From UHGV virus genome UHGV-0024513: DNA of 44,573 nt. One strand, written 5' to 3'. The notes beneath the pieces were generated by a model. That model ran no database searches. It saw only the letters and a list, made by a program, of their open reading frames with translations, and was not told where the DNA came from. The DNA is from a virus. The translations under genes were made by a program, and so were the position numbers. The first letter of the stretch is position 1; each line of letters begins with the position of its first letter. Below, piece after piece: positions 1 to 44,573 of the stretch.

Positions 1-201
1 TTCCTCCAGTATATTTCTGATTGTCATAAGTGAATCATCAACATAGAGAAGATCGTTGATAGCGTATTTGAGCAAGTCTTGATACCGTCGATGCTCTCCG
101 CATCGTTCCTTCATTTTTCTGAGATGTTCGACGATTGCCCCGATTTCCCATTGCCGCTGCTCAAGTTCCGCATCAAGTCTGTTAAGCGCGTGCTCGTTCA
201 T
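1..201 (-). CDS. hypothetical early protein. The 5' part is at 201..1 and the ORF is open at the window start; it closes after 5 more codons if the window end is joined.
   Basis: ATG at 201..199 is preceded by GGAAGGGAG and overlaps the upstream stop (ATGA). There is no stop before coordinate 1. The frame continues into 44573..44559, reading P-C-P-K-N-stop. Confidence 0.45.
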   Translation of the reverse strand, partial: MNEHALNRLDAELEQRQWEIGAIVEHLRKMKERCGEHRRYQDLLKYAINDLLYVDDSLMTIRNILEE

Positions 202-428
202 CTCCCTTCCTCCACGGCCTTGCGCCTTTTAATCATCTCATCGGCCTTTTTGATCCAGCACAGTTTTCTGGATACGATATCCTGACAACTGTGCAGTCCC
301 CTGAGATTACATCCTTCACATCCGCCAGAGATTGCAAGCAATTCTGCCAATGCCCATACCCTTGCGGCATTTCTTTCATGTTTGGAGTTCATCTTTTCTA
401 GCAGCCTCGCGAGCGGCTTCCCGTACAT
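198..428 (-). CDS. hypothetical small protein with a CEGC motif; alternative start at 392
   Basis: Six-frame ORF on the early-left strand. Its stop overlaps the next start (ATGA). The SD is weak. Confidence 0.3.
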   Translation of the reverse strand: MYGKPLARLLEKMNSKHERNAARVWALAELLAISGGCEGCNLRGLHSCQDIVSRKLCWIKKADEMIKRRKAVEEGR

Positions 429-771
429 CTTCAGGCAACGGCGGGTTCATCGCGCCGGAGTCGATATCTGGTAATAAATCAATATCGATATAGGCGTTTG
501 CAAGCCAGATACTGAGGACATCCGCCTCCCGATCCAGCCGTGCTATCTCTACGTCTTTATACCCTAGCTGCCTGTTGAAGATTTCTCGCACGTCTTTTGT
601 CTCTTCACGCCAGAAAAATACTTCTTGCTCCAGCCTTTCTTTCTCCGTATCGGCTTCTTCCAATGCATCAAGCAGCTGGATGGTGAAAATCGCATGTTCT
701 GTATTGAAACATGTGTATGGGGATGACAGTCTTTCGCGCCACTGGTCGCGCTCTTCTTTTGATATGCTCAT
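376..771 (-). CDS. hypothetical phage early protein (131 aa)
   Basis: GGAG lies 8 nt upstream of the ATG at 771. It is in the same operon as the recombination genes. Confidence 0.5.
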   Translation of the reverse strand: MSISKEERDQWRERLSSPYTCFNTEHAIFTIQLLDALEEADTEKERLEQEVFFWREETKDVREIFNRQLGYKDVEIARLDREADVLSIWLANAYIDIDLLPDIDSGAMNPPLPEDVREAAREAARKDELQT

Positions 772-971
772 TTGTATCGCTCCAAGGTACTGCGAACTGC
801 GGAAAGTGCCCTGTCAACGAGATTAAGCGCGTCCTGCTGTTTTTCGATAAGGTCGCACAGCGCGATCACGATGTCTGGGGTAATGGCCTCGTCCCACGCC
901 TTGCCGTCCGCGCCGTTCTTGTCTGCCTCTGCGATAGCCCGGATGCGGGCGAGTTCTTCGGGGGTGATCAT
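768..971 (-). CDS. hypothetical small protein (67 aa from internal Met MITPEEL)
   Basis: AGGAG lies 8 nt upstream of the ATG at 971. The start overlaps the previous stop (ATGA). Confidence 0.4.
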   Translation of the reverse strand: MITPEELARIRAIAEADKNGADGKAWDEAITPDIVIALCDLIEKQQDALNLVDRALSAVRSTLERYK

Positions 972-1183
972 TCTTTCGGCTCCTGCACACTGTTCAGCAC
1001 TTCTTCCCAAGCTTGAGGAGTAACGTCTGAGCACCACACCTCTTTTAGAGGGCAATTTTCTGTTTCTTCGCCATATAGCAGCGGGCATCGAGTATAAACC
1101 GATGCACTGATTTTGCACATATACGCCCGCGCAATGGCCTCTTTCGAGCACTGCATGATGGATTCAAGGGAGGTTTCATTCAT
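968..1183 (-). CDS. hypothetical small Cys-containing protein (71 aa)
   Basis: ORF with ATGA coupling to the downstream gene; it has CxxC-like spacing. Confidence 0.35.
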   Translation of the reverse strand: MNETSLESIMQCSKEAIARAYMCKISASVYTRCPLLYGEETENCPLKEVWCSDVTPQAWEEVLNSVQEPKE

Positions 1184-1463
1184 TGTCCATCTCCTGTTCT
1201 ACGGCGAGAAGTGCGTACATCAGCATAGTATCCCTGTTTGGCATAAACCGCCCGACATCCTTGCAGTGATAAGCCTTTTCGTACTGATACATGAGCTTTC
1301 TTTGAACTCTCGCCTCGAACTCGGCGACGTCCTGATAATCTGGGGTAAGTGGGCAGCCATAGCGAACCAAACACCCATAACCGCAATAGTTAAGTGGACC
1401 TCCGCACAGCGCAGGTCTGTTCTTTCTTTCCTCCAGCCACTTCCTTTCCTGTTCCGTCAGCAT
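1176..1463 (-). CDS. hypothetical Cys-rich protein (C-x7-C-x3-C..C), 95 aa
   Basis: ORF on the early strand with a cysteine cluster. The RBS is weak. Confidence 0.4.
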   Translation of the reverse strand: MLTEQERKWLEERKNRPALCGGPLNYCGYGCLVRYGCPLTPDYQDVAEFEARVQRKLMYQYEKAYHCKDVGRFMPNRDTMLMYALLAVEQEMDNE

Positions 1464-1569
1464 ATTTCACCCCACGCGTTGTTCATGCAGCCGCGCCCCC
1501 TGCACACCATCCAGACCACCCACACGAAGAAGGCGACCCACACCCACGTGAGCCGCCTTTCCCATTTCG

Positions 1570-1845
1570 TCATTCTTCCACCTTTTCAAGTAATGCGACA
1601 TGAGGTCGGTAGAACTTTCCTACGCCACCAGTTTTTGATGGGACGCGAACGATATAGGACACATGATCCCTAGGATAACCAAGATGAGGTGTCCTTCTCC
1701 CATATTTCTCAGCTACCCTCGTGGCATATATCTGAGGATTCCCGCCCGCAGGTATGACGGATTCAACAATCCCTTTTTTTTCTTTCCAAAAGCCATTTGC
1801 AGAAGAAGCCCACTGTACCGTATCGCCAACCTTGAAGTTTTCCAT
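1570..1845 (-). CDS. hypothetical small protein (91 aa from MENFKVGD)
   Basis: GGAG lies 5 nt upstream of the ATG at 1845. The upstream part of the long ORF is low complexity. Confidence 0.4.
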   Translation of the reverse strand: MENFKVGDTVQWASSANGFWKEKKGIVESVIPAGGNPQIYATRVAEKYGRRTPHLGYPRDHVSYIVRVPSKTGGVGKFYRPHVALLEKVEE

Positions 1846-2047
1846 ATTGCTCCGCCTTTTCCGTCCATTTATCGCAGATTGCCAGAGCGCCAGTCTTCCA
1901 ACCATTGAGCGCACAGCGGGAACCTGCAAGGTACGATGTACCGTAGTAGCTCTTTTTCTCGATGCGCTCGATATGCTTGCAATTCGCACAATTCTTTGTG
2001 GGCGCATGTTTCTGCCAGTTTACGCTATTTTTCGTGATTCTTGGCAT
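1763..2047 (-). CDS. hypothetical Zn-ribbon-like protein (CANCKH...C), overlaps previous gene in another frame
   Basis: The ORF has a cysteine pair and a weak RBS. An 82-nt overlap with the 1570..1845 gene makes one of the two models doubtful. Confidence 0.3.
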   Translation of the reverse strand: MPRITKNSVNWQKHAPTKNCANCKHIERIEKKSYYGTSYLAGSRCALNGWKTGALAICDKWTEKAEQYGKLQGWRYGTVGFFCKWLLERKKRDC

Positions 2048-43416: not shown

Positions 43417-43454
43417 ACTGAATAGCTCCTGAGCAAAGGAGGCCGCTCCAGCTG

Positions 43455-43754
43455 CTACTGGACGGCCCCCATATTGAACTCTGCTAAAAGTTCCTTGGCG
43501 GATTTTCCGATGACGCACCCTGATGTTTTGGTTTGTCTTCGTCGCCTTGGAACTCCTGCCTTTGCCTGAGCCTCAGCATGTAATGTGTCGATCACCGTCA
43601 TAACGGCCCGACGATGCCAGCGCAAGCCGTTTCCGCGTCCACGTCCCAGATCGACAGGCTGCACGCCGTGGGAGCGTAGCAAGTTGAGTGAACGTGTAAT
43701 CCCCATTCCCATGAGTTCGGATGCCTGTTCTGTAGTCAAAAGTGTTGGCTCCAT
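43455..43754 (-). CDS. xis: excisionase/AlpA-like HTH DNA-binding protein
   Basis: AGGAGGAAAG RBS. HTH segment EQASELMGMGITRS. It lies adjacent to int. Confidence 0.55.
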   Translation of the reverse strand: MEPTLLTTEQASELMGMGITRSLNLLRSHGVQPVDLGRGRGNGLRWHRRAVMTVIDTLHAEAQAKAGVPRRRRQTKTSGCVIGKSAKELLAEFNMGAVQ

Positions 43755-43765
43755 TTTCTTTCCTC

Positions 43766-44260
43766 CTACGCGGCCCGCTCGTACACCCGCGTCCCAATCT
43801 CAGCGATTCGCGGATCGACCTTTTCGAGCGCATTGCACAGCGTGGTCAGCGTTTTGAGCAGGTTGTGCCAGTGAAGGCCCCGGAAGTAGGCGGGGCAGGT
43901 GTTCCGGCAGTCCTCAAGGAAGGTCAGCCCGGCCCACATCCCGGCACCCCATTGCGTCCAGCGGGAAGCATCGGCGGTCGCGGCCTGAATATCCCCGACA
44001 TGCCCGGCAAGGATATGGAACCGGGCATCCAGATCTCGTTTAGCGCCTGCGGAGAGCCTGCGCTTCTGCGTGTCGTCCGCGCATCGGTCGATCCAGCGGT
44101 TGACCTTCTCGACTTGTCTGCCAAGGTCGCCAAGACTGGAAAGCATTTCCGGCTTGAGGAGGGATAGCGCCACGGTGATCATGGACAGGGCCAGAACACA
44201 GCGGGTGTGCTGGATGGCCTCGTTTGGGTACGGGATTACGGGGTTGATTGGTCTTCGCAT
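43766..44260 (-). CDS. hypothetical protein (164 aa from MRRPINP)
   Basis: GGAGGAGAAC RBS before the ATG at 44260. The longer ORF runs to 44380. Confidence 0.45.
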   Translation of the reverse strand: MRRPINPVIPYPNEAIQHTRCVLALSMITVALSLLKPEMLSSLGDLGRQVEKVNRWIDRCADDTQKRRLSAGAKRDLDARFHILAGHVGDIQAATADASRWTQWGAGMWAGLTFLEDCRNTCPAYFRGLHWHNLLKTLTTLCNALEKVDPRIAEIGTRVYERAA

Positions 44261-44276
44261 GTTCTCCTCCAGAAAA

Positions 44277-44300
44277 GGAAAAGCCCCTTTCGGGGCTATT
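44277..44300 (-). terminator. intrinsic terminator (GCCCC-GAAA-GGGGC + TTTTCC) overlapping Lar-like stop
   Basis: Stem plus T-run on the minus strand. Confidence 0.5.
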
Positions 44301-44571
44301 TCGGTCCGTGCTTGGCTTTGGCGTCCCAAGCGTCTACGGCTTCCTTGAGTGTATCGAAAAGCGGAGTTTTTGCGGGGCATCCAACTTTATCACAAGAGAC
44401 GCGCCACATTTCGACTATGCCGACAAAGGTTGTTGCCAATCTGCACTCTGTGTATGCCGAACCGTTGCATACAGGGCACGGTTTCAAGGCCATGGCTATT
44501 CCTCCGGTTCGCGGGGGGAGTTGATGAGGTATCCATGCTTTTGCGCCACGCAACGTCAGTTCTTCGGACAT
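44296..44571 (-). CDS. lar: Lar-family restriction alleviation protein
   Basis: ALKPCPVCNG...C...C matches the Lar LKPCPFCG zinc-ribbon motif. Confidence 0.55.
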   Translation of the reverse strand: MSEELTLRGAKAWIPHQLPPRTGGIAMALKPCPVCNGSAYTECRLATTFVGIVEMWRVSCDKVGCPAKTPLFDTLKEAVDAWDAKAKHGPK

Positions 44572-44573
44572 GG

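Follow-up and report, generated by a model that had tools for sequence, protein, structure and literature searches.

Closed genomes of temperate phages that combine lambda-type control regions with mosaic modules are common. For the genome described here, the closest described systems are lambda, for the control and early region; the group of Bordetella phage BPP-1 and epsilon15/phiV10, temperate podoviruses whose virion genes are T7-like, for the virion module; and the RecET/Lar (RalR) genes of the Rac prophage of E. coli, for recombination. The host is Bilophila, a human-gut member of the Desulfovibrionaceae (Desulfobacterota) and a sulfide-producing gut pathobiont. A literature search gave a single passing mention of a "Bilophila phage" and no phage of this genus in culture. 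Here we examine UHGV virus genome UHGV-0024513, a stretch of 44,573 nucleotides that we call the window. A sequence-only reading had proposed that its two ends join and that the whole is a complete phage genome, circular or circularly permuted, with a lambda-like pL operon running across the junction. We are highly confident that the window holds a single complete genome, closed into a circle, of a temperate gut phage infecting Bilophila, and that the sequence is cut inside the early operon. That reading is correct but ordinary.

Results

Bases 44573 and 1 of the window are neighbours in two other public assemblies, both 100% identical to it, with no bases gained or lost at the join. The ENA scaffold ERZ28615129:scaffold_1289 (L001; 44,615 bp) runs from window position 7446 down to 1 and then directly from 44573 to 33766 at 100% identity and free of indels. 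The ENA MEGAHIT contig ERZ27287251:k141_415234 (L052; 44,520 bp) runs from 19711 to 44573 and then from 1 to 2484, again at 100% identity and without a mismatch or gap over 27,347 nt, join included. These two are independent assemblies but perhaps not independent biological samples, as both may come from the window's own sample or reads. Five contigs from other samples (L003, L006, L007, L010, and L011), 98 to 98.7% identical to the window, are collinear through the join. Counted together, at least seven contigs other than the window are continuous through 44573|1. Beyond both window ends these assemblies continue into phage DNA and not into unrelated host sequence. A search for circular overlap, as the sequence-only reading had suggested, found no terminal direct or inverted repeat of 8 to 400 nt in the window itself, where it was presumably trimmed; what bridges the ends is other contigs, and because the window lacks an end overlap, closure rests on those assemblies. 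Both 100%-identical assemblies break in a (CT)n microsatellite tract at 7391 to 7460 that the window bridges, which gives a circular map of about 44,573 bp. Both ends of scaffold_1289 lie in this tract, with an end overlap of 42 nt (44,615 minus 44,573), and k141_415234 is short of the window by only 53 nt, again at the tract.

The join restores a gene. An ATG at 201 on the minus strand opens a frame of 67 codons (1 to 201; the reverse complement is stop-free), so that, as had been stated, the ORF reaches base 1 without a stop. Joined to the 3' end of the window, the frame reads ..ILEE|PCPKN* and gains its last five codons and stop at 44556 to 44573 (minus; stop at 44556 to 44558), for a total of 72 amino acids. 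GGAGGAACCATG spans the join, and the join sequence, ..ACTGGAGGAA|CCATGTCC..., places a GGAGG 5 nt before the start codon at 44571 (ATG), where a 91-amino-acid ORF (44296 to 44571, minus) begins and overlaps the 72-amino-acid ORF by 16 nt. The five-codon continuation and the Shine-Dalgarno sequence for this Lar-like gene had both been predicted, and both are present in the joined sequence. Gene callers on scaffold_1289 and k141_415234 give exactly the predicted 72-amino-acid protein. Its C terminus is conserved in the divergent contig L008, where the homologue ends ..SCPKN* with the same 16-nt overlap into a Lar-like gene.

The leftward early genes all lie on the minus strand. A PD-(D/E)XK exonuclease of 267 amino acids (4390 to 5193; PF12705, 76.3 bits; PHROG 69) precedes a RecT-like single-strand annealing protein of 338 amino acids (3370 to 4386), which matches the "RecT-like" PHROG 561 over residues 1 to 306 (E 1e-79). 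Against Pfam RecT (PF03837) the latter scores 15.3 bits, below the cut-off of 24 (E 0.015), and by these profile matches it is a distant member of the RecT superfamily. Two overlapping small ORFs of 76 and 131 amino acids (198 to 771) lie just upstream of the junction ORF; the 76-amino-acid protein is found in 77 blocks of the collection. Past the join, the 91-amino-acid protein falls below curated cut-offs for PF14354 (21.8 versus 28.6 bits) and TIGR03655 (22.2 versus 39.6 bits) and matches PHROG 599 at E 4e-7, so that "Lar-like zinc ribbon" is at most the label warranted by its sequence. Its predicted start at 44571 is reasonable, and a homologous MPE(E) opens the related proteins of L008 and L028. 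The window copy carries a 22-amino-acid insertion with a second in-frame ATG (44496) that has its own GGAGG.

Next in order is an ORF of 164 amino acids (43766 to 44260), the exact protein of which is on record in other contigs and for which a family search returned zero matches. It is followed by a candidate excisionase, or recombination directionality factor, of 99 amino acids (43455 to 43754) that is named for its position, immediately upstream of int in seven loci. This protein matches HTH_17 below threshold across the whole domain (E 0.047), a match seen in three of five homologues, and has no NCBIfam match, the TIGR01764 excisionase included; its AF2 model is of low confidence (pLDDT 56). 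The tyrosine integrase (364 amino acids, 42322 to 43416) matches PF00589 at 81.9 bits (cut-off 27.1) as well as PF13102, and its homologues are found in Bilophila and Desulfovibrio genomes.

The gene order given earlier (exo, recT, small ORFs, lar, xis, int, and attP repeats) is therefore real except that it omits the 164-amino-acid ORF. Among the names, exo, "RecT-like," int, and attP are confirmed; recT itself depends on PHROG 561 only, lar is weak, and xis is given by position and the subthreshold HTH_17 match. The proposed lambda pL layout holds for the co-oriented leftward recombination genes, int, and attP; a pL promoter and operators were not found, and "pL" is an analogy. Promoter-like sites were not enriched over shuffled sequences, no repeat is common to 7531 to 7665 and 8590 to 8662 as operators shared with pR/pRM might be, an antiterminator was not found, and the first leftward ORFs have no family match. 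The proposed operon also contains a terminator-like hairpin, at 44282 to 44297. Leftward early transcription would start near the immunity region and pass through the exonuclease and RecT-like genes and small, often overlapping ORFs to the join. Past it, transcription would continue through the Lar-like gene, the 164-amino-acid ORF, the excisionase candidate, and int, probably ending at a hairpin beyond attP (42115 to 42157).

The crossover region of attP, a 13-bp core of sequence CCCTGTACATGGG at 42261 to 42273, was mapped from prophage-host junctions in Bilophila contigs. The int-side junctions L002 and L012 are homologous to the window only as far as 42261, and the far-side junction L025 only as far as 42273. 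The core is common to the window, L002, and L012, and the far junction reads CCCTGTTCAAGGG, with two mismatches. Six arm-type repeats, TG(A/C)CACAT(A/T)TT, flank this core on both sides, four in the P arm (42157 to 42213, plus) and two in the P' arm within the 3' end of int (42353 to 42380, plus), in agreement with the attP-like array that had been noted beyond int. The hairpin at 42115 to 42157, a bidirectional terminator, lies on the side of attP away from int.

A look for attL and attR in host assemblies had been advised; the integrated elements at these prophage-host junctions carry the same int/att module and recombine at the 13-bp core. Their integration site is bordered by a Bilophila xanthine/uracil permease gene and, on its opposite side, by a DUF218-like gene; the empty attB was not recovered. 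Bilophila metagenome-assembled genomes carry int at 96% identity, and two further contigs, one from IMG/VR and one from a metagenome, also have attP intact. We saw no host-integrated copy of the exact genome, only mosaic relatives that share the int/att module. Because attP is intact in the window, what was sequenced is not an integrated prophage but the excised, replicative, or virion form, and the junction-mapped core further means that the window is not an excised-prophage prediction. The phage DNA would be circular after infection, and Int, the arm-type repeats, and probably the 99-amino-acid upstream protein would carry out integration and excision.

The immunity region lies to the right of the early operon. 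A putative HTH-like repressor of 141 to 154 amino acids (8164 to 8589, minus) is suggested by position, being divergent from the cro-like gene and co-oriented with the early-left genes; it has no family match and no recognisable S24 domain. The Cro-like HTH gene (8663 to 8935, plus) matches HTH_31 below threshold and PHROG 1373, and a CII-like regulator (9210 to 9734, plus) matches PF06892 (Phage_CP76) at 29.6 bits, above the cut-off of 26. The rightward and late genes, on the plus strand, would complete the genome with functions for replication, lysis, packaging, and the virion. They include a replication initiator (10391 to 11317; PF19808 and replication-initiator PHROGs) with iterons inside its gene (30 bp, 3.3 copies, 10660 to 10756), a Peptidase_M15_4 endolysin (12494 to 12895), the small and large terminase subunits (14487 to 16507; PHROG 1206 and PHROG 38), and a T7-type portal (Head-tail_con; 17260 to 18912; PF12236; PHROG 332, E 2e-108). 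The span from 19184 to 29699 is shared by genes for a scaffold/protease, the major head protein, tail tubular proteins A and B (nozzle), gp14-like and further internal virion proteins, and a tail spike with a Peptidase_S74 C terminus. A giant protein of 2,448 amino acids (29711 to 37057; PHROG 9880, weak LPD22) ends the late operon. It is followed on the minus strand (37410 to 39965) by a Rha-like regulator of 244 amino acids and a low-GC moron encoding a 512-amino-acid coiled-coil/Mrr_cat nuclease. Judged by these matches, the virion module is T7/BPP-1-like (podovirus), and the likeness of the genome to lambda is confined to the control and early region.

The most notable by-product of the closure analysis is a variable (AG)n tract in an early gene. 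The ORF at 7189 to 7530 (minus) contains A10 and (AG)35; on the plus strand the second of these is (CT)35, at 7391 to 7460. It is the first leftward ORF past the immunity genes and a terminator at 7665 to 7682, which is the position of lambda N. A conserved basic leader of 24 amino acids and the poly-A run precede (AG)n, the repeat number ranges from 10 to 35 among relatives, and the tract shifts a diverged but homologous C-terminal domain of about 65 to 70 amino acids in or out of frame. We put forward, as a tentative and rather doubtful idea, that the lineage carries a slipped-strand, phase-variable early gene here. If that were true, an early function of this temperate phage of a gut pathobiont, and possibly the expression of its entire early-left operon, would be gated by a hypermutable switch.

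Discussion

The permuted assemblies and the intact attP bear out the claim of a complete genome. The genome was assembled as a circle and then linearised at an arbitrary point within the leftward early operon. Closure of this kind is conceptually routine. Other accounts of the window were weighed against it. That a boundary predictor cut an integrated prophage out of a bacterial contig, leaving the join a coincidence, might be suggested by the presence of int and by close relatives of the int/att module in Bilophila chromosomes. Integrated copies, however, split at 42261 to 42273, 2.3 kb from the window end, whereas P arm, core, and P' arm are contiguous in the window; moreover, the window ends lie inside coding sequence. 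The contiguous attP and the contigs that read through both ends into phage DNA refute this account, and we give it practically no weight. Hardly more probable is that the window ends are the physical ends of a linear genome (cos or short direct terminal repeats). Nothing speaks for this except the linear presentation of the sequence, and the ends fall 15 nt short of an ORF's stop codon and within the ribosome-binding site of the next gene, lack a terminal repeat, and are 14 kb from the terminase genes, with the contigs continuous through that point again counting against it.

A somewhat stronger case, still an improbable one, can be made for a chimera of two related Bilophila phages, misassembled for instance at the (CT)n tract, so that the 44.6-kb circle would not be one genome. 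Mosaicism is high in this phage group, the tract is a break point in many assemblies, and the window alone bridges it in this exact strain. Against this, each flank of the tract matches an end of one and the same scaffold at 100% identity, the length of that scaffold fits exactly minus the tract overlap, and the relatives L029 and L038 bridge the tract, at 97 to 99% identity, with the same flanking genes. Every essential module (immunity, replication, lysis, packaging, head, tail, and integration) is also present exactly once. A different suggestion, that headful packaging yields linear virion DNA with terminal redundancy and circular permutation, would refine closure rather than replace it, with the circular map representing the population and the replicative form but not the packaged molecule; the sequence-only reading had left room for this. 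Assemblies break at arbitrary or repeat-determined points away from the terminase genes, a fixed terminal repeat is absent, and both terminase genes are present; nothing counts against it. The large terminase subunit (TerL) is at most 27% identical to that of any INPHARED phage, so the packaging type is not inferable by homology, and we hold headful packaging to be nearly an even proposition.

As a complete, circularly closed genome, the window can serve as a reference (about 44.6 kb) for an uncultured temperate Bilophila phage. With attP, its core, and the chromosomal target mapped, it becomes straightforward to detect the prophage, to assign hosts, and to follow induction by PCR across attP and 44573|1.

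By megablast, no nucleotide similarity to INPHARED phages was detectable. As in lambda, the leftward operon lies on the strand of the repressor gene, here a putative one, divergent from cro-like and cII-like genes, and holds an exonuclease and an annealing protein, small accessory ORFs, a small HTH gene, and int, with attP at its distal end. Both genomes have a short attP core between arm-type repeats, ori-type iterons within the initiator gene, and a terminator past attP (the tI/sib position), where it is separated from int upon integration. Unlike lambda, the window phage has no identified homologue of N/nut or Q; its nuclease precedes its annealase (RecET order), whereas lambda has bet-exo; and the nuclease is of the PDDEXK_1 type and the annealase distantly RecT-like, not Red-beta. 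Its virion module is that of a T7-like podovirus and not of the lambda siphovirus. Neither in sequence nor in its virion module did we find it related to lambda, P22, or HK97, as a lambdoid phage would be; the portal, tail tube, and internal virion proteins are T7-type.

The recombination genes compare with those of the Rac prophage, which likewise has an exonuclease, a RecT-type annealase, and a Lar-like zinc-ribbon gene further down the operon, but in the window the Lar match is subthreshold, the nuclease is not RecE, and the RecT match is found in PHROGs only. The BPP-1 and epsilon15/phiV10 group differs from the window phage in that portal identity is only about 30% and the window TerL has no detectable relation to theirs. 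The window has no visible reverse transcriptase or diversity-generating retroelement, carries the 2,448-amino-acid terminal protein, and has its host in another phylum (Desulfobacterota). Like the members of this group, the window phage is temperate and carries an integrase, and its genome falls in the range of about 40 to 45 kb. It shares with them a T7-type portal (29.4 to 29.6% identity to those of BPP-1 and phiV10 over 90 to 96% of the protein), tail tubular proteins A and B, and internal virion proteins.

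Independent assemblies close the map at the join

The sequence-only reading had claimed that the two ends of the window (44,573 bp, 52% GC) join to give a complete circular or circularly permuted phage genome. Its point of departure was a minus-strand ORF, and we found the frame to be as described: from the ATG at 201, exactly 67 stop-free codons lead to base 1, and across the join, where the sequence reads ACTGGAGGAA and then CCATGTCC, the residues ILEE are followed by PCPKN and a stop, giving a total of 72 aa (1 to 201 plus 44556 to 44573). The Shine-Dalgarno sequence that it had placed at the join is also there, since the joined sequence puts GGAGG before the ATG at 44571 of a 91-aa minus-strand ORF (44296 to 44571), which overlaps the 72-aa ORF by 16 nt. 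A frame that stops within 5 codons and a Shine-Dalgarno sequence paired with an ATG could both be due to chance. Taken without other assemblies, the window sequence suggests closure and, because there is no terminal direct or inverted repeat at its ends, does not prove it.

Using exact-protein look-up, we recovered assemblies of the same genome from ENA and from Logan contigs. Scaffold_1289 of ENA ERZ28615129 (44,615 bp; L001, L031, and L042) matches the window at 100% identity and runs from 7446 down to 1, continues with 44573 as the next base, and goes on to 33766; its opposite end covers 18167 down to 7405. Contig k141_415234 of ENA ERZ27287251 (44,520 bp; L052) runs from 19711 to 44573 and then from 1 to 2484, with 100% identity over 27,347 nt and with 0 mismatches and 0 gaps. 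On both contigs, the gene called at the join is 72 aa long, with exactly the translation predicted for the joined ORF. Five contigs from other samples (L003, L006, L007, L010, and L011) are collinear over the join at 98 to 98.7% identity, and a more diverged contig (L008) has a 72-aa homologue of the same length that ends in SCPKN and a stop and retains the 16-nt overlap with a Lar-like gene. The 100%-identical contigs may share the window's sample; the 98% relatives are clearly from other samples.

At either end, scaffold_1289 breaks off within a (CT)n microsatellite, of which each end carries 28 copies, and the window bridges this tract as (CT)35 at 7391 to 7460. The overlap between the scaffold ends, 56 + 56 - 70 = 42 nt, is exactly 44,615 - 44,573. 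The MEGAHIT contig k141_415234 is short by only 53 nt, at the same tract. Because each assembly spans the other's break, the map closes into a circle of about 44,573 bp. Two other readings, that the window ends are fixed physical ends and that the window is a chimera at the (CT)n tract, were considered and rejected. The proposal of a joined genome holds: the window is a complete temperate phage genome linearized at an arbitrary point, which is an ordinary finding.

Packaging type was also approached through TerL homology, and this route was rejected: the best INPHARED matches are heterogeneous and at most 27% identical, from which packaging type is not inferable, and at that distance from any INPHARED phage the terms "circular" and "circularly permuted" are not separable. 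An exact 34-mer over the join had no match in IMG/VR or GTDB genomes, and the phage with an intact join is therefore absent from both sets. Exact-protein look-ups with the 154-aa repressor ORF, TerL, portal, and tail tubular A proteins gave no match; TerL and portal are nonetheless listed on L031 (scaffold_1289) at the same length, despite these empty look-ups.

attP is intact, and its core is mapped by prophage-host junctions

The host is Bilophila. Homologues of the integrase (int, 42322 to 43416, minus strand; PF00589, 81.9 bits) are found in Bilophila and Desulfovibrio genomes, with one Bilophila metagenome-assembled genome (MAG) at 96% identity. Two contigs, one a 3.18-Mb metagenomic chromosome (L002) and the other from a Bilophila MAG (L012), have homology that passes int and ends at 42261, after which comes a xanthine/uracil permease gene. 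L025 is a different prophage that shares the att module; here, homology extends from 42110 to 42273 and then gives way to host DNA, whose protein we take, from inspection by eye, to resemble DUF218/YdcF. The core common to these junctions is CCCTGTACATGGG at 42261 to 42273, and its L025 version is CCCTGTTCAAGGG. Around it stand six arm-type repeats, TG(A/C)CACAT(A/T)TT, four at 42157 to 42213 and two at 42353 to 42380. The attP-like array noticed earlier corresponds to these six copies, and the search for attL and attR in host assemblies that had been proposed as a check yielded the three junctions that place the core and its chromosomal target.

The window, L026, and an IMG/VR contig (L024) all have the P arm, core, and P' arm unbroken. 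Because they are contiguous, the window represents an excised, replicative, or virion form. In an integrated copy, the break would fall 2.3 kb from the window end and not at the end, so the window is no excerpt of a prophage; with attP intact, we also rejected the reading of the window as an excised-prophage prediction. None of the fetched loci contained an empty attB.

A strong bidirectional terminator hairpin, with an 11-bp stem between A7 and T8, lies past attP from int (42115 to 42157). Because it is beyond attP on the far side, integration would part it from int, the same topology as in lambda tI/sib retroregulation. On the model of lambda-type temperate phages, the genome would circularize after entry, and a leftward early transcript would begin near the immunity region, cross the join, and reach int. 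Int would then bind the arm-type repeats and core and recombine attP with an attB sited between the permease and DUF218-like genes, with a 99-aa protein aiding excision.

The P arm also contains a perfect sigma-70 consensus on the plus strand (TTGACA-18-TATAAT, 12/12; 42202 to 42231), which overlaps an arm-type repeat and is directed across the core. At the attL-type junction of L025 (9830 to 10000), this promoter sequence is directed into the DUF218/YdcF-like host gene, which starts about 90 nt past the core. The prophage may, as judged from sequence, supply a predicted promoter to the host gene that it displaces, and at the other junction Int would read toward the permease gene.

Leftward early genes

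All genes of the leftward early region are on the minus strand, and their order is continuous across the join. A repressor candidate without a family match (8164 to 8589) is overlapped by an 84-aa ORF (7913 to 8167), followed by a terminator-like hairpin (7665 to 7682), a small ORF with a microsatellite (7189 to 7530), and several small ORFs (about 5300 to 6810). Next come a PD-(D/E)XK exonuclease (4390 to 5193; PF12705, 76 bits), a RecT-like annealase (3370 to 4386; PHROG 561, E 1e-79; Pfam RecT at only E 0.015), ORFs matching PHROG 997 (2910 to 3314) and PHROG 1029 (2128 to 2892), and about six small, often overlapping ORFs (198 to 1845). Beyond the 72-aa junction ORF are the 91-aa Lar-like ORF, which falls below Pfam and NCBIfam cutoffs and matches PHROG 599 at E 4e-7, a 164-aa ORF also listed on other contigs (43766 to 44260), the 99-aa xis candidate (43455 to 43754), and int.

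The lambda-like pL layout of the sequence-only reading therefore stands for the exonuclease, RecT-like gene, small ORFs, int, and attP, with the qualifications that Lar is below cutoffs, xis is assigned by position, and pL was not found. Its Lar start at 44571 is defensible: the L008 and L028 homologues begin MPE(E), aligned with MSEE in the window. An alternative exists in a 22-aa insertion, shared by the window and L003, that contains a second in-frame ATG (44496), also after GGAGG. The 99-aa ORF is directly 5' of int in seven loci whose integrases are 59 to 100% identical. It gave nothing significant against Pfam, NCBIfam, or PHROGs; an HTH_17 match is subthreshold (E 0.047, in three of five homologues), and a single-sequence AF2 model (pLDDT 56) is too poor for a fold search, for which reasons xis remains a positional candidate. 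A TrwC match in the PDB profile search was dismissed as spurious.

We found no operators common to the cI/cro intergenic region and the putative pL region, and promoter-like sites in a promoter scan were not above shuffled sequence. A terminator-like hairpin (44282 to 44297) lies inside the proposed leftward operon, for which N-type antitermination is not supported by the data; a further hairpin is at 7161 to 7185. ARAGORN called a tRNA-Leu(GAG) at 5716 to 5785 (minus strand) of 70 nt, short for a class II tRNA; because no Rfam family reached its gathering score in the window, this call is probably a false positive.

A microsatellite ORF in the position of lambda N

The ORF at 7189 to 7530 holds the position equivalent to that of lambda N. 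It contains a perfect (CT)35/(AG)35 tract and an A10 run, has GGAG 7 nt before its ATG, encodes MSKRLSSHAAKQSRTSSDTPKKKK-(RE)n-65 aa, and has no family match. Relatives (L027 to L030, L036 to L039, L044, L046, and L048 to L050) keep the 24-aa basic leader, the poly-A run, and the (AG)n tract, and the C-terminal domain of about 65 aa is homologous and strongly diverged, with four types. Copy numbers are 10, 15, 17, 18, 19, 20, 21, 25, 28, and 35, with the caveats that short-read assemblies can miscount (AG)n and that the contig-end values 28 and 15 are k-mer artifacts; at least eight contigs terminate within the tract. Where the flanks are the same, the frame is kept at n = 15, 18, and 21 and lost at n = 10. 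Of 13 distinct alleles overall, about 5 keep the frame, near the one-third expected for an unconstrained frame. Across these assemblies of different relatives, the ORF looks like a slipped-strand phase-variable gene (contingency locus).

Rightward genes and virion module

Every essential module is present in single copy. On the plus strand, a cro-like gene (8663 to 8935) and a cII-like gene (9210 to 9734; PF06892) precede a replication initiator (10391 to 11317), which carries 3.3 copies of a 30-bp repeat, unit CAAAAACCGAACGGTTTTTAGACGAAAACC, at 10660 to 10756; these resemble the ori iterons inside lambda O. Four and a half copies of a 10-bp repeat, GCACAAAACT, lie at 12385 to 12429, just 5' of the endolysin (12494 to 12895) and late genes, and may be a late-regulator binding array. 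Also on the plus strand are TerS and TerL, a T7-type portal (PF12236; PHROG 332, E 2e-108), a head protein, a tail spike, tail tubular proteins A and B (nozzle), and a gp14-like internal virion protein. A 2,448-aa protein (29711 to 37057; PHROG 9880, E 2e-245, weak LPD22) with HExxH-type motifs is encoded last in the late operon, following the internal virion proteins of T7 gp14 type, and may serve as an ejected polyvalent or internal virion protein by analogy with T7 gp16.

Between the late operon and attP are a Rha-like regulator, a 512-aa coiled-coil/Mrr_cat gene, an HTH_17 gene, and four small ORFs. The 512-aa gene (38427 to 39965, minus strand) is a 34%-GC island in the 52%-GC genome and adjoins the Rha-like gene. 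Its product combines a membrane segment at the N terminus with long coiled coils and, at the C terminus, an Mrr_cat restriction-endonuclease domain, and it is probably a defense or superinfection-exclusion moron. An AcrIF11-type ADP-ribosyltransferase gene (PF26151) is found in the early-right region of some relatives (L027, L033, and L036); for the window, none is listed in this region.

Relations to other phages

Human-gut metagenomes and IMG/VR hold many close, mosaic relatives. Megablast of both window flanks against INPHARED gave no match, and the papers searched contained only one passing mention of "Bilophila phage." The int/att module and the block of 76-aa, 72-aa, and Lar genes are common, at 95 to 99% identity, to otherwise unlike elements (L002, L003, L025, L027, and L028). 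Among them are phages whose recombination modules are of the DUF3799/RecT or SSB/Sipho_Gp157 kind, a prophage that has a different gene (243 aa) beside attL, and an element encoding a D5_N primase and a GpA terminase. This pattern points to wide mosaicism among Bilophila mobile elements.

Judged by its sequence, the phage is not lambdoid, either taxonomically or as a member of a recombining group. Its control and early region works like that of lambda, and it is like the Rac RecET region in the exonuclease-then-annealase order and the Lar-like gene. The virion module is podoviral and T7-like; among cultured phages, Bordetella BPP-1 and the phiV10/epsilon15 group have the nearest portals, which are about 30% identical.
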